DNA from: a virus
IMG/VR virus record: IMGVR_UViG_3300045988_165032
Length of the DNA stretch: 64,000 bases
Direction: 5' to 3' (one strand)
Of the stretch, positions 3,512 through 15,387 are shown in pieces. Numbering within the stretch: position 1 is the first letter of the stretch; the number at the start of each line of letters is the position of its first letter. The notes under the pieces were generated by a model. It was given only the letters and a program-made list of their open reading frames with translations, did no database searches and was not told the DNA's origin. The position numbers were made by a program, and so were the translations under genes.

Positions 3512-4526
3512 CAACCCTTTTGTGGGTTTAAAGGACTGTGTAAAACTTTTCCAGCTTACCACTGGGGTTATCGTTTAAGATAGCTAACGGGGAACCCTAA
3601 GTAGAAATATATGGGAATCCCGTGGGAAACTTTGGACAGAAATAATCAAATTTATTTTGACTACTTTCATACACAAATAGAAAATTGTGTGGAAGGAGTT
3701 AAAAATGGCAATAGTTTACTGTTATACTAATCAAATCAATAATAAAAAATATATAGGACAAACAATTAACCCAGAGCAAAGAAAAAATCAGCATCGAAGT
3801 TCTGCTTTCAATCCTTCTGATAAAGATTATGAATCATTAATTCATAGAGCTTTTAGAAAATATGGTTATGAAAATTTTACTTATGAAGTATTAGCTGAAA
3901 TTTATGACAATGATTTTGACTTACTTAATAAGCTAGAACAATATTATATTTTAAAATTTAACTCAAAAGTTCCTAATGGCTATAATGTTTTAGAAGGTGG
4001 AAAGAATTGTGCGAGACCGCATAAGGAAGAGACTAAAGAAAAAATGAGATGGTCTCATGCAGCTCTTACGAAAGAAGAAGTTATCTCTTTGCGAATTGCT
4101 TATAAAGAACAAAAAAGTCCAACTAAAATATTTAAAGAAAAATACGAAGGAAGAATAGAATGGCAATCTTTTTTAAATATCTGGACTGGAAAAAGGTATG
4201 CTACTGTAATGCCAGAAGTTTTTAAAACAAATGATGGTACGGGAAGAAAAACCAAACTTACTGTTGAAATTGTAAAAGCAATTAGGGAAGAAAGAGAAAA
4301 AACAGGGAAAAGCTATGATAAAATAGCAAAACAATATGGAATCTCAAAAGCAACTGTTGCAGATTTGATTAAAAGAAGAACTTGGAAAAATGTCTAAAGA
4401 ACCTGTATCGACTATCCTCGGATCGGAGGAGTAGGACTACTATTGGTACGTAGTTCGAAATGGTTTCCTATGACTTTTGTCGTAGTAAGAGATAGTCAAC
4501 GCCTCTTGAAAGAGAGGACTTACGTG
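3509..4526 (+). mobile_element. Group I intron (td-like IA2) carrying a GIY-YIG homing endonuclease in the P6 loop; boundaries within about 5 nt
   Basis: 5' core CTAACGGGGAACCCTAAGTAGA...GGGAATCCCGTGGGAAAC resembles the T4 td intron P3-P4-P5 region. 3' core TGTATCGACTATCC...GTAAGAGATAGTCAACGCCTCTTGAAAGAGAGGAC gives R/S and the P9 hairpin. It separates two halves of one DnaB reading frame. Confidence 0.55.
3705..4397 (+). CDS. GIY-YIG homing endonuclease (I-TevI-like) with C-terminal NUMOD/IENR1 domain
   Basis: IVYCYTN...KYIGQT...R...E...N motifs. GGAAGGAG RBS before the ATG at 3705. Embedded in the intron. Confidence 0.8.
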   Translation: MAIVYCYTNQINNKKYIGQTINPEQRKNQHRSSAFNPSDKDYESLIHRAFRKYGYENFTYEVLAEIYDNDFDLLNKLEQYYILKFNSKVPNGYNVLEGGKNCARPHKEETKEKMRWSHAALTKEEVISLRIAYKEQKSPTKIFKEKYEGRIEWQSFLNIWTGKRYATVMPEVFKTNDGTGRKTKLTVEIVKAIREEREKTGKSYDKIAKQYGISKATVADLIKRRTWKNV

Positions 4527-5046
4527 CTTCGATTACATCCATACAAGTATGAAAATTTTAAGTGAAGTCTCATCTAAGACTGGAGTAAGAGGATTAAGAG
4601 AAGATAATATCCTTTTTATGATTTCAATTCGCTTAAAAGATATGTGTAACCAGTATGGTATTTTTATTATGACAGCAACTCAGTTAAATAGTAGTTATAT
4701 AACAGCTCAACAATATGATCAGAATCTGTTAAGAGGAGCTAAATCTATTGCGGATAAAATTGATTGTGGTATGATTATGCTTGAAGTTGATAATGATGAT
4801 CGTAACGCTTTAGAAAATGTTTTAGCTCAAGGAGGATTTGAGACGCCTCAAATTAAAATATCTATTTATAAAAATCGTAGAGGTAGATATAAAGGAATTT
4901 TATTGTGGTGTAAGGCGAATAGAGGTACTTGTAAAATTATTCCTATGTTTGCAACTAATTACCAGTATGAGTTGATTCCTATTGAAGATTTAAAAATCAC
5001 TGTTAAGCCAAAAGAAGAAAAAAAGACTGATGTTAGTGCTTTTTAA
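4527..5046 (+). CDS. dnaB: DnaB-like helicase, 3' exon (5' boundary approximate)
   Basis: The in-frame sequence upstream of the listed ATG (from about 4527) encodes FDYIHTSMKIL, the DYLQL-type motif. ISIRLKDMCNQYGIFIMTATQLN matches DnaB ISRSLKxLAKELNVPVIALSQLNR. Confidence 0.6.
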
Positions 5047-5075
5047 TTTAAAAAGAAAGAAAGGAATAAAGAGTC

Positions 5076-6212
5076 TTGTATAAGTATGATAAAGACGAAT
5101 TAAAATTAAATCTTTCAATAGAGCAAGTTTTTGATCTGGTCGCGGAATTGGGTGGAGAGCCACGAATGGAAAGTGGTTTTTTTATTTCTAAAACAATATG
5201 TCATAATCATGCTGGAGAAGGCTCTTATAAATTATATTATTATGACAATACTAAATTATTTAGATGCTATACTGATTGTGGGACTAGCTTTGATATATAT
5301 GAACTTGTAAGAAAGATAAAAAATAATAGTAAGGACTTAAAAAGTTATTATAACAAAGAAGGAAAAGTTTGTTATAGAGAATGGGAACTTTTTGATGCTG
5401 TTGAATTTGTTGCAATATATTATGGATATTCACCAAAAACATTTGATTTTCAAAAGACTCAAGAGAAATTAAAAGATTGGGAAGTTCTTAATAATTATGA
5501 GCAAATAAACAAAGATGAACAAGAGCAAAGAGTAGAATTAAGAATTTTTGATAATAAAATTTTACAGTATTTACCTCGTCCGCGAATAATAACTTGGGAA
5601 CAAGAGGGAATAAAAAAGGAGGTAATGGATCATAGGGGCATCGCCTATGATCCTAAAAACCAAGGTATAGTAATTCCGCATTATGATATAAATAATCAAT
5701 TAGTTGGAATAAGAGAAAGAACTTTAATTAAAGAAGAAGAAAATTTTGGAAAATATCGACCAGCTATTCTAAATGGAGTTATGTATAACCACCCTCTAGG
5801 CTTTAACCTATATAATCTTAATAATAGTAAAGATAATATAAAAATAATTAAAAAAGTTATTGTTTATGAAGGAGAAAAATCTTGTCTTTTATATGCTAGC
5901 TATTTTGGAGAAGAAAATGACATTAGTGTAGCTTGTTGCGGAAGTTCATTAATTACTTATCAAGTTAAATTATTATTATCTTTAGGGGTAAAAGAAATTA
6001 TTGTTGCTTTTGATAAACAGTTTATTACTATTGGTGATGATGAATGGAAGCGTTGGACAAAGAAATTAACAGATATTCATAATAAGTATGGTGCTTATAC
6101 TCAAATATCTTTTATGTTTGATAGATGGGACCTATTGCAATATAAATCAAGCCCAATAGATGAAGGAAAAGATACTTTTATGGAACTATTTAAAAGGAGA
6201 ATTATATTATGA
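5076..6212 (+). CDS. dnaG: DnaG-like DNA primase (CHC2 zinc finger plus TOPRIM)
   Basis: CHNHAGEGSYKLYYYDNTKLFRCYTDCGTSFDIYELV zinc-binding region. VIVYEGEKS TOPRIM acidic motif. Apparent TTG start. Confidence 0.7.
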   Translation: MYKYDKDELKLNLSIEQVFDLVAELGGEPRMESGFFISKTICHNHAGEGSYKLYYYDNTKLFRCYTDCGTSFDIYELVRKIKNNSKDLKSYYNKEGKVCYREWELFDAVEFVAIYYGYSPKTFDFQKTQEKLKDWEVLNNYEQINKDEQEQRVELRIFDNKILQYLPRPRIITWEQEGIKKEVMDHRGIAYDPKNQGIVIPHYDINNQLVGIRERTLIKEEENFGKYRPAILNGVMYNHPLGFNLYNLNNSKDNIKIIKKVIVYEGEKSCLLYASYFGEENDISVACCGSSLITYQVKLLLSLGVKEIIVAFDKQFITIGDDEWKRWTKKLTDIHNKYGAYTQISFMFDRWDLLQYKSSPIDEGKDTFMELFKRRIIL

Positions 6213-10237: not shown

Positions 10238-12759
10238 ATGAGTAATCGTTTTGAAACTCATTCTCATACTGAGTATAGTAATCTTCGTTTATTAGATTGT
10301 ATTAATAGACCAAAAGATTTAATTCAAAGAGCGATTGATTTAGGCTTATCTGGAATTGCTATTACAGACCATGATTGTCTATCTTCTCATATGGAAATAA
10401 ATATATATGCTCAGGAATTAAAAGAGAAAAATCCTAACTTTAAAATTGCATTAGGGAATGAAATTTATTTATGTCCATCAAGAGATAAAGGACAAAAATA
10501 TTTTCATTTTATTTTAATTGCTAAAAATAAAATTGGATATAGAGCATTAAAAGAATTATCTTCAAGAGCTTGGATGAATTCTTTTTTTGATAGAGGCATG
10601 GAAAGAGTAGTTACTTTATATGACGACTTAGCGGAAATTGTAAAAAAATATCCAAATAGTTTAATTGCAACAACAGCATGCTTGGGTGGAGAATTGAGCA
10701 CTCTAACTAAACAATTAATTTTAGCAGAACAAACAAAAGATGCTGAATCCGTGGAAGATGCTCATAACAGAATAGTTAATTTTATTTTATGGAATAAGTC
10801 TTTATTTGGACAAGATTTCTATATTGAGTGTGCTCCAGGACAAAGTAAAGATCAAGTAATGGTAAATAAGAGACTTTTATCTATTGCTAGATGTTTTAAT
10901 ATAAAAATGGTACTTGGCACAGATGCTCATTATTTAAAAAAAGAAGATAGATTTGTTCATAAATCTTACTTAAATTCTAAGGGTGGAGAACGAGAAGTTG
11001 ATGAGTTTTATGAATATAGTTACTTGCAATCAGAAGAAGAAATAATTGAAAATTTAAAGCCTTCTGAGTTAAATTATGAAGAATTATGTAATAATTCTTT
11101 AGAAATTTATTCTAAAATTGAAAATTATAATTTAAAACATAAACAAACAATTCCAAAAGTTAAAGTTAGAGATTACCCTAAAGATAACTCTTTAAAGGAA
11201 TATCCTACTTTACATAAATTATTATTAAGTGATGATATTCAAGACAGATATTGGGTTAATACTTGTTTGCAAAAACTCCAAGAAATAAATAAATATAACA
11301 ATACTTATTTATCTCGATTAGAAGAAGAAGCTGATATTAAAGATACTATTAGTAAAAAACTTGAAACTAATATGTTTAGTTATCCTAATACTTTACAACA
11401 TTATGTTGATTTATTTTGGGATTGCGGAAGTATGGTAGGTGCAGGAAGAGGAAGTTCTTGCTCTGGATTAAATCATTACTTAATGGGAATTACTCAACTA
11501 GATCCGATTGAATGGGAGCTTCCTTTCTGGAGATATTTAAATAAAGAGCGTATAGAGCTTGGAGATATAGATTTAGATTTAAGTCCAAGTAAAAGACCTT
11601 TAATTTTAAAGAAAATAAAGGAAGAACGCGGAAAAAATTTTAAAAAAGATATTGATGTTTTATCTCGAAAAAATTTAGGATGTACGTTGATAGCCACTTT
11701 TGGAACTGAAGGTACTCGATCAACTATTTTAACCGCTTGTCGCGGATATAGAAGTGAAGAGTATCCAGACGGAATTGATGTTGACACTGCTCAATTTTTA
11801 TCTTCTTTAATTCCAAGTGAAAGAGGTTTTTTATGGTCTTTATCAGATGCCATTAATGGTAACCCAGATAAAGATAGAAAGCCTATTAAGATGTTTACTA
11901 ATGAGGTAGAAAAATATCCTGGCTTATTAGATATTATGATTGCTATTGAAGGGTTAGTAAACAAAAGGAGTTCTCATGCTTCTGGAGTAATTCTTTTTGA
12001 TGAAGACCCATATGAATTTGGATGTTTTATGCGGACTCCTAAAGGAGAAATTATTACGCAATGGGATCTTCATATGTGCGAAGCAGCAGGTATGACAAAA
12101 TATGACTTCTTAGTAACTGAAGTCCAGGATAAATTAGCAGAAACAATTAAATTACTACAGGCTAATAATGAAATTGAATCAGATTTATCTTTAAAAGAAG
12201 TGTATGAAAAATATTTTCATCCAAGTGTTTTACCTATCGAAGATAAAAAATGTTGGAAAGCACTGCAAAACAACTCAGTTTTAAATATTTTTCAATTTGA
12301 TAGCGATGTAGGCAGTCAGGCTGCAAAAAAAATTAAGCCAGCCTCAATAATTGAAATGTCAGATGCTAATGGATTAATGAGACTTATGACTAGTGAAAAA
12401 GGTCAAGAAACGCCAATGGAAAAATATGTAAGATATAAAAAAAATATTGATCTTTGGTATCAAGAAATGAGAAGAGAGGGGTTATCTCCTCAAGAGATGA
12501 AAACATTAGAACCTTATTTCTTAAAGTCTTATGGTGTTCCGCCAAGTCAAGAACAATTAATGAGTATGTTAATGGATAAGGATATTTGCGGTTTTAAGTT
12601 ATCTGAAGCCAACACCGCGAGAAAAATTGTTGGTAAAAAACAAATGAGTAAAATTCCAGAATTGAAAAAGAAGGTTATTGAACAAGCTAAAAGAAAAGAA
12701 CTCGGAGACTATGTATGGAAATATGGCATAGGTCCGCAGATGGGATATAGCTTTAGCAT
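10238..12759 (+). CDS. dnaE: DNA polymerase III alpha (DnaE-type), 5' exon
   Basis: N-terminal PHP domain HSHTEYSNLRLLDCI...IAITDHDCL. Polymerase core. Exon ends ...GYSFSI. Last exon nucleotide is U12759. Confidence 0.7.
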
Positions 12760-13985
12760 TGTGTGAATGGTGCTTACACACTTAACCACTTATCAGTGGG
12801 GTAATTAAAACATTTACATATTTGGCAAATATGGTTTTAATTGCTAACGAGGGTTAAATCTCGTGACAAATTTCTTTAATAGAGGTATAGTATTTTTCAG
12901 TTATACATGAGAATAGTAAAACAATGTATAAGGAGAATATTATGTACTATATTTATAAATTTACAAATAAAACAAATGGTAAAATTTATATCGGACAAAC
13001 TAATAATGTTCAAAAAAGAAAAAATGGACATAAAAGTGAGTCTTTTAATGAAAAAGCTTCTGGCTATAATTTGCCATTTCACGCAGCCATAAGAAAATAT
13101 GGTTGGGATAATTTTAATTTTGATATTCTTGAAGAGATTGCTGATGGAGAATCTCAAGAATATATTGACGAAAGAGAAATTTATTTTATTCAATATTATC
13201 ATTCTTTAAAAGATGAAAATGGATATAATATTACTTTAGGCGGACAAGGATATAAAAGAAAACCTTTAACGTATGAAGAAAAATTAAACCGATCTAAACT
13301 CTTTAAAAAAGAAGAAATTATTGATATTCAAAATCGTCTAATGAATGATGAAGAATATGATGATATTGAAAAAATTTATTTTCCTAAGTTAAAAAGAACG
13401 TTTTTAGTTAATATAAATACTGGAACAAATTATTTTAATGAAGAGTTTGATTATCCTTTAAAGAAAAATTCTAAAAGCCGCTTTTCTCAAAAAGAAATTA
13501 GAGAAATAAAAGATAGAATTAAAAGCGGAGAAAAATATAAAACAATTCAAGAAGATTTTGGAATTAAATCAGCTGGATTTTTATCTATGATAAATACAGG
13601 AAAATATTTTTATAGTGATAAGGATAACTACCCTCTTTGTGATAAAGGTGGTAATAAAGCTAAAAATGAAATCTGGATTCAAGGTATTATAAAAGATATT
13701 TTAGAAACAGATTTATCTTTAAAAGATATCGCAAAAAAATGGAATAAAAGCTATGCAACAATTAAAAATATTAACGCAGGACGTTCTCATAAAAAAGAAA
13801 AATATAAATACCCTCTTAGAGATAATAAATAAATCTATTAAAAGAAAAATGTTGTATCGACTATCCCTGGTTAGACGGGGAGTACTGAAACTATTGATAC
13901 GTTTTGGGAAATAGTGTGCAGACAAGAGAAAAGCCAAAATCTCACTACAACGTCTGTAAAAAATAGTCAGTAATTTTAAATTATG
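12760..13985 (+). mobile_element. Group I intron (paralogous to the dnaB intron) carrying a GIY-YIG homing endonuclease
   Basis: P1: exon AGCAU (12755-12759) pairs with GUGCU (12770-12774), with a U.G pair at the splice site. 3' core TGTATCGACTATCCCTGG matches the dnaB intron. Terminal G at 13985. Excision joins GYSFSI to IHALAYSFIGFQT, restoring the DnaE F-N-K-S-H-A-x-A-Y block length. Confidence 0.65.
12942..13832 (+). CDS. GIY-YIG homing endonuclease (I-TevI-like) with NUMOD/IENR1 repeats
   Basis: YYIYKFTNKTNGKIYIGQT...R...E...N. AGGAG RBS. Related to the dnaB-intron endonuclease. Confidence 0.8.
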   Translation: MYYIYKFTNKTNGKIYIGQTNNVQKRKNGHKSESFNEKASGYNLPFHAAIRKYGWDNFNFDILEEIADGESQEYIDEREIYFIQYYHSLKDENGYNITLGGQGYKRKPLTYEEKLNRSKLFKKEEIIDIQNRLMNDEEYDDIEKIYFPKLKRTFLVNINTGTNYFNEEFDYPLKKNSKSRFSQKEIREIKDRIKSGEKYKTIQEDFGIKSAGFLSMINTGKYFYSDKDNYPLCDKGGNKAKNEIWIQGIIKDILETDLSLKDIAKKWNKSYATIKNINAGRSHKKEKYKYPLRDNK

Positions 13986-15387
13986 CATACATGCCCTGGC
14001 TTACTCTTTCATAGGATTTCAAACTATATACATAGCCACAAGATGGAATCCTATCTATTGGAATACCGCGTGTTTAATTGTAAATAGTGGAGCCTTAGAA
14101 GAAGATAATATTGAAAATGAAGAAGAAACAGAAGAAAGTAAAAAGAAAGAAAAATCTACGGATTATAGTAAAATAGCTAAGGCTATTGGAGATATTTTAT
14201 CAAGAGGAATAAAAATTTCTTTAGTTGATATAAATAAATCTGACTATAGCTTTAAGCCAGATGCTGAAAACAACGAAATTCTTTTTGGAATGAAAGCATT
14301 GAGTAATGTAGGTGCACCAATTATTGAGCAGATTTTTTCTGGTAGACCATATAAAAGCATTAAAGACTTTATGATAAGATGTCCTTTAAATAAATCTGCA
14401 ATGATTTCCTTAATAAAGAGCGGAGCTTTTGATAAACTGGAATTAGAATGGGCAAAAGAATTAAATGTTGAACCAAGAGTGCTTGTAATGATATATTATC
14501 TGTCTGTTGTTAGTGAACCAAAAAAGAAATTAACGCTACAAAACTTTAATGGTTTAATTCAAAAAGACTTAATTCCACCTTCTTTAGATAGTATGAAAAG
14601 ATTATTTTTCTTTAATAAGTATCTAAAAACTGAGAAAAAAGTTGGAAAATATTATGTCTTTGATGATGCTTGTGAAAAATTCTACAATCAAAGATACGAT
14701 ATGGAAGACCTTGAAGTGATAAACGGATGCGTTTGTATTTTACAAAACAAATGGGATAAAAAGTATCAAAAAGGCATGGATAGAGCTAGAGATTGGCTTA
14801 AAGAGAATCAACAGACAGTATTAAAAGAATTTAATGAGGCTTTATTTCTTGACTCTTGGAATAAATATGCTAAAGGAAATATTTCCGCGTGGGAAATGGA
14901 AAGCTTATGTTTTTATTATCATCCACATGAATTAATAAATATTGATACTTTAAAGTATGGAATTTCAGATTTTTCTAAATTACCCGAAGAGCCTGTTGTA
15001 GATTATTTTTTCAAAAGAAATGGAAAAGAAATCCCTATTTATAAGACTTATAAAATCATTGGCACTGTAATCAGTAAAAATGATGCTCGTTCTTCAATAT
15101 CATTATTAACAACTTCTGGAGTTGTTAATGTAAAATTTACAAAAGATTACTTTGCTATGTTTGGGAGACAAATTTCTGAAAAGCAAGAAGATGGAACTAA
15201 AAAAGTTATGGAAAAAGGCTGGTTTCAAAGAGGAACAAAAGTAATGTGTACTGGGTTTAGGCGTGGAGATACATTTCAGACTAAATCGTATAAACATACC
15301 CCTACCCATCAGCTCTACAAGATTATTGACGTCAATGGTTCAGATATGAAACTAGAGCATGTTAGATATGGTATGGAAGGAGAATAA
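13986..15387 (+). CDS. dnaE: DNA polymerase III alpha (DnaE-type), 3' exon
   Basis: Upstream in-frame extension HALAYSFIGFQTIYIATRWNPIYW matches the DnaE HAxAYxLxxYQTAYLKAHYP block. HhH region ALSNVGAPIIEQIF. C-terminal OB-like region. Confidence 0.7.

Follow-up and report, generated by a model that had tools for sequence, protein, structure and literature searches.

The window, i.e. the whole stretch of 64,000 nt of viral DNA that was analysed, carries a polymerase gene in two pieces separated by an insert that contains an endonuclease gene, which raises the question of whether and how a complete polymerase could be produced from this locus. The split gene (10238-12759 and 13986-15387) encodes a DnaE-type (family C) replicative polymerase and belongs to an SPbeta-like gut phage of ~135 kb. 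Bases 12760-13985 very probably constitute a mobile group I intron of the td/IA2 type inside this gene, its splicing being predicted from the sequence. The boundaries, the covarying RNA helices, the restored protein and the family of the endonuclease were established by computation, as was the fact that alleles lacking the intron or its ORF exist.

Restored polymerase and intron boundaries

Exon 1 (10238..12759, + strand; from the list of open reading frames) comprises 840 codons and two bases of an Ile codon. Its unspliced read-through stops at UGA 12764-12766, within the P1 loop, and the resulting ORF (10238..12766) ends in ...GYSFSIV*, the SIV* terminus already noticed in the preliminary description. 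Exon 2 (13986..15387, + strand; from translation) begins with the C that completes the Ile codon, after which come 466 codons and the stop. In the ORF list, no in-frame ATG, GTG or TTG start occurs 3' of the intron until 14290, about 100 codons into exon 2. Once 12759 is joined to 13986, translation gives 1,307 aa without a stop until 15387 and reads ...GYSFSIIHALAYSFIGFQTIYIATRWNP... over the junction.

The preliminary description had proposed comparing the joined protein with DnaE domain models. This returned the full Pfam DnaE domain set: the PHP, Pol3-alpha, finger and HhH domains are found in that order, 4/4 above the Pfam cut-off, with PHP, DNA_pol3_alpha and finger in the exon 1 part and HHH_6 in exon 2. 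The alignment with Taq Pol III alpha (3e0d/2hpi) is ungapped over the junction (GYSFSIIHALAYS / NYGFNKSHAAAYS), leaving the GYxFxxxHAxAY block intact, and SPbeta YorL aligns to the joined protein as a single piece. Furthermore, the best 80 viral relatives, intronless phage homologues, show no interruption at the junction site and each give one continuous match. The restoration of the DnaE block with the right spacing, as earlier proposed, therefore holds exactly against all these proteins. A megablast search of the dnaE region against a phage genome collection gave no match, indicating no close cultured relative there.

The intron (12760..13985, + strand, 1,226 nt) is delimited by a colinear intronless allele and by covariation within its family. 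Over 3,923 nt, the intronless allele (L001; 98% identical) follows the spliced sequence colinearly, differing from it by 80 mismatches and 0 indels, and is ungapped across the junction. Together with the gap-free Pol III alpha alignment and the family covariation, this upholds the boundaries 12759|13986 that had been placed from the window. The 3' splice sites of group I introns come after a terminal G. Position 13985 is a G, followed by CATACATGCC, and a terminal G is found at the intron end in all family members, in agreement with the end initially assigned to G13985. In the window and close relatives, it lies two bases 3' of the covarying P9 hairpin.

RNA helices, intron family and endonuclease gene

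About 36 distinct versions of the dnaE intron were found in viral and metagenomic contigs, 18 of which make up the covariation alignment. In these 18 introns, 95.6% of cells are paired, versus 31-43% when the partners are slid, and 31/61 pairs change on both sides, a count reached by 0/500 shuffles.

In P1 (12755..12774, + strand), exon AGCAU 12755-59 pairs with guide GUGCU 12770-74 around loop 12760-69. This pairing, four Watson-Crick pairs plus U12759.G12770, is the one originally proposed, and compensatory changes in relatives now back it: in the 18 aligned introns, 100% of cells are paired, the U.G is present in 18/18 and 3/5 pairs show compensatory changes. The exon/guide pairs of relatives are AGCAU/GUGCU, AGCGU/GCGCU, ACGCGU/GCGCGU, AGCCU/GGGCU and GGGUU/GGACCC. 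A U.G plus four Watson-Crick pairs within 8-30 nt also arises by chance at 551/23,200 T positions of the window (2.4%), so that P1 pairing alone is weak evidence; it is the family covariation, the ungapped intronless allele and the gap-free Pol III alpha alignment that raise P1 above chance. P10 (3 bp) joins CAU 13986-88 of exon 2 to AUG 12767-69 in the P1 loop, adjoins P1 and has 85% of its cells paired.

The other elements also lie on the + strand. The 5' strand of P3 (CACACU, 12777..12782) pairs with AGUGUG 13913-13918; it is 100% paired with 3 compensatory pairs, for instance CACGCU/AGCGUG in L232 and CAUACU/AGUAUG in L220. An alternative P3 (GCUA 12843-46 / UAGU 13912-15) was rejected, its outer pairs failing in L218, L225, L239 and L241 and the double change of L220 fitting only CACACU/AGUGUG. 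Hairpin 1 (12786..12799; CCAC/GUGG, loop UUAUCA) has a covarying stem (CCGA/UCGG in L084). Hairpin 2 (12802..12843) consists of an outer stem (12802-11/12834-43), where 9/10 pairs are compensatory, and an inner one (12817-23/12827-33). The following stretch (12844..12870), which includes J3/4 (CUAA), P4 (CGAG 12848-51 / CUCG 12860-63) and the joiner UGACAAA, is invariant in the family, an invariance to be read in the light of the use of this stretch as the family search pattern. The 4-bp P4 is closed by an 8-nt loop, GGUUAAAU, which shows no evident P5 helix. P6 (12871..13847; 12871-83 / 13834-47, with one bulged A) has compensatory changes in 10 of its 13 bp, and its loop holds the endonuclease gene.

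The 3' half of the catalytic core (13858..13970) starts with P7, in which C13858 and GACUAU 13859-64 pair with AUAGUC 13963-68 and G13970, A13969 being bulged; its seven pairs are invariant. Since P4 and P7 are constant in the family, they are backed by conservation and similarity to td, and not by covariation. P7.1 (13865-69/13876-80) shows compensatory changes in 3/5 pairs and P7.2 (13885-91/13901-07, loop UAUUGAUAC) in 6/7. The 3' strand of P3 (13913-18) precedes P8 (13919-23/13952-56, inner stem 13926-29/13940-43), which covaries strongly. The P3-P7 pseudoknot, the P7 bulged base (guanosine site) and the R and S flanking elements are thus all present. The intron ends (13971..13985) with the P9 hairpin (UAAUU 13971-75 / AAUUA 13979-83; 5/5 pairs compensatory), U13984 and the terminal G13985. 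Moreover, the loop of hairpin 1 (12791-95) contacts L7.2 (13895-99), and this contact covaries among related introns (AUCA/UGAU, ACCA/UGGU, GCCA/UGGC and GCUA/UAGC). Another partner for the P7.2 loop (GAUAC 13896-900 / GUAUC 13854-58) was discarded: relatives with GUAAC keep GAUAC and the loop variants do not track this strand. No specific account of a contact by the L7.2 loop turned up in the literature searched, which in itself proves nothing.

The gene carried in the P6 loop (12942..13832, + strand) encodes a GIY-YIG homing endonuclease of 296 aa; its ATG (12942) lies 6 nt after AAGGAG 12930-35. The N-terminal GIY-YIG domain matches PF01541 in Pfam (41.8 bits against a cut-off of 22.6, E 1.3e-10), BLASTP gives 31% identity with I-TevI over 121 aa (E 8e-8) and PDB matches are 1mk0/1ln0. 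In the C-terminal part, a HTH_38 match (residues 250-275) is sub-threshold (17.4 bits, cut-off 27). In L225 and L226, relatives that lack the ORF, a short hairpin occupies the position of P6, and ORF-less versions of the insert are present at the same dnaE site. The intron class, the core structure and the endonuclease, all of which go beyond the preliminary description, agree with its reading.

These elements suggest how the intron would be removed and spread. The last five exon bases would form P1 with the internal guide, the U.G wobble marking the cut site, and a free guanosine held in P7 would attack after U12759. The terminal G13985 would next occupy the same P7 pocket, while P10 would keep the first three bases of exon 2 beside P1 for exon ligation. 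The predicted mRNA reads AGC AUC AUA CAU and would encode the full-length polymerase of 1,307 aa. The endonuclease would cleave this conserved motif in alleles that lack the intron, and repair of the cut would spread the intron (homing).

The search with Rfam RF00028 (Intron_gpI) gave no match on the window at the gathering threshold and none on the intron region at E<=10. Likewise, Rfam reported no group I match to this intron family in L225 and L226 (E<=1) nor in the further dnaE loci tried, although it did detect two other introns in L226 (57.8 and 48.8 bits). Since covariation was found helix by helix, we take the Rfam miss to reflect insensitivity of the model and not absence of the intron. 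A blastn search of the 5' intron half against phage genomes returned only noise. Within a single dnaE hot spot, members of the family sit at several positions. The DnaB gene of the window is also split, by a second intron.

Tentatively, this intron and its ~36 relatives might form a distinct, unmodelled td-like subclass that was re-targeted to at least three positions of the dnaE motif, although we regard this joint reading as doubtful. Its marks may be a P3 strand directly after the guide, two hairpins between P3 and J3/4, a covarying contact between hairpin 1 and L7.2, the lack of an evident P5 and invisibility to RF00028. Re-targeting appears to proceed by change of the guide sequence, to sites that lie 0, 4 and 10 nt 5' of the His codon. 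The same dnaE motif is also struck by other introns, and possibly by the cyanobacterial intein.

Alternative readings of the interrupted gene

The exact position of the junction deserves attention because the first intron base is a T and the intronless allele, which reads AGCAT-T-ATACAT, has a T where exon 2 has its C. DNA comparison alone therefore permits 12759|13986 or 12760|13987, and Ile is encoded under either. If the cuts fell one base later, after U12760 and after C13986, ligation would give AGCAUU|AUACAU, which is the sequence of the intronless allele at that position; U12760 could moreover pair with G12769 in a second U.G lengthening P1, both bases being invariant in the family. However, an intron shifted in this way would end in C, whereas all family members have a G at the equivalent of 13985, followed by a variable C/U. 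Furthermore, G12769 is better read as the P10 partner of the first base of exon 2 (G-C in 7/18, G.U in 9/18), and we consider the shifted boundaries very unlikely. A 5' splice site after U12762 used with G13985 was rejected, as it inserts an extra Val and disrupts the motif spacing shared by all homologues.

Beyond the placement of the junction, the RNA could be a decayed, splicing-defective remnant that lost P5 and inactivates the polymerase gene in this genome. The lack of an evident P5 and the failure of Rfam to match even the ORF-less members agree with this, but the P5-less design is kept in ~36 diverged versions, in which compensatory changes preserve every other helix. Neither the exons nor the endonuclease ORF are damaged, and the polymerase is the replicase of the phage, its exons being 98% identical to the intronless allele with an undamaged frame; decay is therefore extremely improbable. 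The locus could also be left unspliced, as a polymerase gene broken by a free-standing GIY-YIG gene and yielding two proteins, or one joined by a split intein. 'Fractured gene' arrangements with a split intein exist (PMC2677866), Rfam finds no intron here and the annotation of related phages lists the pieces as separate genes. Against such a broken gene, the flanks of the endonuclease gene are non-coding and about ten helices covary in 18 relatives, including the pairing of the exon end with the intron. In addition, exon 2 has no in-frame start before 14290, and a free-standing endonuclease gene leaves the ORF-less inserts at the same site unexplained. Pfam shows DnaE families only, without intein motifs, and there is no room for intein halves since exon 1 continues for just 2 codons beyond the junction. 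An unspliced broken gene is hence scarcely credible, and a spliced group I intron remains by far the preferred reading.

Because gene callers and Rfam overlook this intron, the replicase appears as a truncated gene and a fragment devoid of a start, with an 'orphan' endonuclease gene between them, and the same annotation error is visible in deposited phage genomes. The true polymerase of 1,307 aa follows from exact boundaries. Family-C polymerases would thereby join the replication genes of phages in which group I introns with endonuclease genes have settled, and the GY-x-F-x-x-x-H block of DnaE stands out as a hot spot where insertions crowd together. The co-variation of guide and exon at this block could be used for studying how introns change their target site. 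The current understanding of the group I intron mechanism is unaffected.

Comparison with td and other known systems

Like the td intron of phage T4, the dnaE intron splits a phage protein-coding gene at a conserved motif, loops a GIY-YIG gene out of P6, with a catalytic domain 31% identical to that of I-TevI, and has P7.1 and P7.2 between P7 and the 3' strand of P3. In the 3' core, the two share near-identical strings (CGACUAUCCC, GGGGAGUA, GAAA(C/U) and AUAGUC), and P7 and its flanks match. In the 5' core, they share CUAAC-G..G...C..CGUG-C/A-AAAU, with J3/4-P4 and P4'-J-P6 collinear: positions 12844-12870 are collinear with CUAAACGGGG...CCCGUGCUAAAU of td, the td stretches of both core halves being taken directly from the T4 genome sequence. 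However, td interrupts the gene of thymidylate synthase and not that of a DnaE-type polymerase. In contrast to td, the dnaE intron has no hairpin between P1 and P3; P3 begins 2 nt after the guide, and the two hairpins that would ordinarily be P2/P2.1 lie 3' of the P3 5' strand and not 5' of it, as hairpins 1 and 2. Its P7.2 loop (UAUUGAUAC) contacts the hairpin 1 loop, whereas that of td is short and of AAGU type. Furthermore, no P5 is evident, and its 3' tail is a single P9 of 5 bp instead of P9-P9.2. A mark of IA2 introns is the presence of two hairpins, P7.1 and P7.2, in the interval from P7 to the 3' strand of P3 (PMC4227781). Both hairpins occur here and covary, while the extended P9 domain of IA2 introns (P9.0, P9.1, P9.2) and a P2 between P1 and P3 are absent, a single P9 preceding the final U-G.

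Reviews give polymerases, ribonucleotide reductases and terminases as the usual targets of phage introns (PMC3984707, PMC3428280). No description of a phage dnaE interrupted by a group I intron was found in the literature searched, an absence that is no proof. Phages SPO1/SP82, Bastille and Pf-WMP3 also harbour, in a replicative polymerase gene, a self-splicing intron that carries a homing endonuclease; there, the polymerase is of family A (Pol I-like) and the endonuclease an HNH nickase, whereas the present locus combines family C (DnaE-like) with GIY-YIG. In Enterococcus phages EF1 and EF5, the GenBank annotation already shows a dnaE divided into three and accompanied by an HNH endonuclease. 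The split gyrase gene of Lactococcus phage AM1 has the same succession of exon, 5' core, endonuclease gene, 3' core and exon, with a similar 3' core, and Enterococcus phages VRE9_3 and EF5 show the part of this layout in which an ORF precedes the 3' core. The split DnaE intein of cyanobacteria, whose C-extein begins with CFN (PMC3759424), can also be compared with this intron. It is likewise an endonuclease-derived selfish element that breaks up DnaE, but it is removed from the protein and not from the RNA, and the polymerase of the window contains no intein motifs. This CFN would correspond to the (G/C)FN within that same GY-GFNKSH block.

The interrupted dnaE gene and its ribozyme core

The insert at 12760-13985 of the window (1,226 nt) is a phage group I intron carrying a homing endonuclease gene and located in a replication gene, an element of an ordinary kind. 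The preliminary description was correct and precise in this respect, and its positions and strings are exact: AGCAT at 12755-12759, GTGCT at 12770-12774 and G13985 followed by CATACATGCC. The naive dnaE ORF starts at 10238, enters the insert and terminates at 12764-12766 (...GYSFSIV), after SIV as this description also stated. This in-frame UGA lies 5 nt inside the intron, within the P1 loop; most relatives, but not all, have UGA or UAA at the equivalent position. A ribosome running on from exon 1 would be halted there, before the ribozyme core.

Joining 12759 to 13986 gives a frame of 1,307 codons whose first stop is at 15387. The joined protein displays the PHP, DNA_pol3_alpha, finger and HHH_6 domains in this order, each over the Pfam cut-off. 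The proposed restoration of the DnaE block is borne out by alignment with the Thermus aquaticus Pol III alpha (3e0d/2hpi), which has no gap over the junction (mgysfsiihalaysfigfqtiyiatrw in the joined protein versus anygfnkshaaaysllsyqtayvkahy). Furthermore, SPbeta YorL and its relatives align with the joined protein as a single piece (~40% identity), and the 220 residues around the junction have an unbroken match in all of the best 80 viral-contig relatives.

Since 2.4% of the window's U positions show a P1-type pattern, the P1 pairing is by itself no more than chance. The intron does have many relatives: as a search pattern, the motif GCTAACGAGGGNNAAATCTCGTGACAA matches 28 viral and 19 metagenomic loci, corresponding to ~36 distinct versions (hereafter the family), nearly all located in dnaE at the same protein motif and including an ORF-less member of ~265 nt (L225). 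In these relatives, exon and guide sequence change together (AGCAU/GUGCU, AGCGU/GCGCU, ACGCGU/GCGCGU, AGCCU/GGGCU, GGGUU/GGACCC), which upholds the claimed P1 with U.G at the splice site. For instance, one relative (L084) carries a natural double change, A12758 to G being matched by U12771 to C. In an alignment of 18 sequences with the ORF removed, all P1 cells (100%) are paired, U.G is invariant and three of the five pairs are double-changed.

In the same alignment, the whole proposed structure has standard pairs in 95.6% of cells, versus 31-43% when partners are slid by 1-3 columns. Double changes affect 31 of the 61 pairs, and none of 500 shuffles reached the observed values. All cells of P3 (12777-12782 with 13913-13918, plus strand) are paired (100%), and three of its pairs are compensatory. 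Covariation is heavy in P7.1, P7.2, P8 and the second of two hairpins located 3' of the P3 5' strand (12802-12843), and is also found in P9, the inner stems and P6, the helix that closes the ORF loop. No variation occurs across the family in P4 or in P7, where A13969 is bulged; support for these two helices comes from their being identical to, or collinear with, their counterparts in the T4 td intron. The window intron and td, as read from the T4 genome, have in common CGACUAUCCC...GGGGAGUA...GAAA(C/U)...AUAGUC and a second string, CUAA(A)CG..G...C..CGUG(C/A)(U/C)AAAU. The hallmark of subgroup IA2 is the presence of P7.1 and P7.2 (PMC4227781). Moreover, the signature CGACTATCCC...GGGGAGTA is present in more than 120 viral contigs, and this core is therefore common in phages.

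Splice sites and alternative explanations

In IMG/VR contig 3300045988_162193 (L001), an intronless dnaE allele matches the spliced sequence colinearly along 3,923 nt, with 80 mismatches and no indel. Around the insertion site it reads AGCATTATACATGCT, AGCAT-T-ATACATGCT facing AGCAT/C-ATACATGCC in the window (slashes denote junctions). Since the intron, too, begins with T, the DNA comparison allows both 12759/13986 and 12760/13987, and either junction encodes Ile. The boundary displaced by 1 nt, which gives the same protein, is nevertheless very unlikely according to the terminal-G rule: every family member has a G at its 3' end, and the base after it varies between C and U. The 3' site is therefore G13985, and the reading frame then places the 5' site at U12759. 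In addition, CAU of exon 2 (13986-13988) can pair with AUG (12767-12769), immediately 5' of the guide sequence, and this P10 is paired in 85% of cells of the 18-sequence alignment. Hence, the 12759/13986 junction is supported by three independent lines, namely protein alignment, intronless allele and RNA rules; the predicted ligated RNA would read ...GGAUAUAGCUUUAGCAU/CAUACAUGCC. Two synonymous T>C differences separate the window from the intronless allele at 13986 (+1) and 13995 (+10), the next mismatches being only at -146 and +52, for an expectation of ~0.2 per 10 nt. These two substitutions might perhaps fit a co-conversion tract or immunity of the endonuclease target.

That the intron is dead seems more doubtful still, the same design being kept in ~36 diverged copies with intact exons. 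Least credible of all is a polymerase gene broken by a free-standing endonuclease gene, or a split intein: the RNA helices covary, ORF-less inserts occupy the same site, exon 2 has no start codon and intein domains are absent. For a self-splicing group I intron, the known chemistry of this family suggests that a P7-bound guanosine would attack after U12759 and that G13985 would next take its place in the P7 pocket. Exon 2 would be aligned by P10, and exon ligation would yield AGC AUC AUA CAU.

Insertion hot spot and phage context

Beyond an ordinary intron, the insertion hot spot in dnaE and the structural oddities of the family are worth noting. The GY-x-F-x-x-x-H block is an insertion hot spot, as seen from the loci compared (L242, L220, L250, L217; L226; L264, L266; L265). 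Family introns lie 10 nt (GYGF^N), 4 nt (window site) or 0 nt (L226, CCU/CAC) upstream of the His codon, with a guide sequence matched to the exon at each of the three positions. L264 and L266 carry a related intron with normal P4-P5, 17 nt upstream of this codon, and L265 harbors at the same block an unrelated ORF-less insert of ~250 nt (GUUCAGAGACUAUAA...GGUAUAGUCC; approximate extent). Some relatives have several introns in a single dnaE; that of L226 has at least three, Rfam finding 4224-4440 and 4960-5192 (both minus strand) and missing the family member. A related intron is located at a different site (...DLHDAEDCS/...) in L085-L087, and dnaE of Enterococcus phages EF1 and EF5 is annotated as three pieces plus an HNH endonuclease.

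The window appears to belong to a large SPbeta-like phage, encoding DnaB, RecJ-like, RecD-like, DnaE and anaerobic ribonucleotide reductase proteins, then structural proteins on the opposite strand. Its relatives, contigs of ~125-140 kb along with several shorter fragments, come from metagenomes of animal gut and rumen or from MAGs bearing the label Bacilli or Erysipelotrichaceae. The gene for the DnaB-like helicase, with exon 1 from 2481, is interrupted by a second group I intron (approximately 3569-4526) with a GIY-YIG ORF (3687/3706-4397), a td-like 5' core (3585-3630, CUAACGGGGAACCCUAAG...AAUCCCGUGGGAAAC) and a 3' core (4406-4497, GUAUCGACUAUCC...GGAGGAGUA...CUAUUGGUAC...AGAUAGUC). With ends at U3568.G3583 and G4526, the frame continues as ...TGV/FDYIHTSMKIL, a sequence reminiscent of the Walker-B region of DnaB; this intron goes unreported by Rfam. 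In the deposited genomes of Enterococcus phages VRE9_3 (L081) and EF5 (L082) and Lactococcus phage AM1 (L083), 3' cores similar to that of the dnaE intron lie directly 3' of an ORF. In VRE9_3, this ORF carries a homing endonuclease annotation and small predicted ORFs overlap the core region; in EF5 and AM1, the ORF is listed as a hypothetical protein and the core region has no annotation. The AM1 annotation treats the interrupted gyrase gene as two separate genes.

Unusual structure and likeness to td

The window intron escapes searches with Rfam RF00028, as do the ORF-less relatives that L225 and L226 carry, whereas the same search detects two other introns farther upstream in the L226 dnaE (57.8 and 48.8 bits). 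The miss is likely due to a P3 starting 2 nt past the guide sequence, to two hairpins (12786-12799 and 12802-12843) between P3 and J3/4, and to a P4 (12848-12863) whose capping loop has 8 nt, GGUUAAAU here and GGUAAAAU in the majority of relatives. P2/P2.1 normally precede P3. With this P4 loop of 8 nt, no P5 helix is evident in the family, which makes it plausible that splicing would depend on a protein.

The loops of the first hairpin (UUAUCA) and of P7.2 (UAUUGAUAC) are conserved. Among the window, L136, L137, L157, L179, L124, L165 and L200, a contact between 12791-12795 and 13895-13899 co-changes across different intron families (AUCA/UGAU, ACCA/UGGU, GCCA/UGGC, GCUA/UAGC). A literature search of incomplete coverage found no description of this loop-loop contact or of the P3, hairpin and P4-loop features. 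The family is thus a possible new variant, whose novelty is not established.

The ORF of the insert, with a likely start at ATG 12942, 6 nt past AAGGAG, encodes a 296-aa protein with a GIY-YIG domain (Pfam) that shares 31% identity with I-TevI across the catalytic domain and also matches I-TevI crystal structures. This endonuclease would be expected to cleave intronless alleles and to spare those that contain the intron, leading to homing. In T4 td, 19 nt separate the P4 strands, presumably forming a short P5 hairpin, versus 8 nt in the window intron; related introns have ~25 nt, apparently including P5. The I-TevI gene lies in the P6 loop of td, and the endonuclease gene of the window intron occupies the same place.
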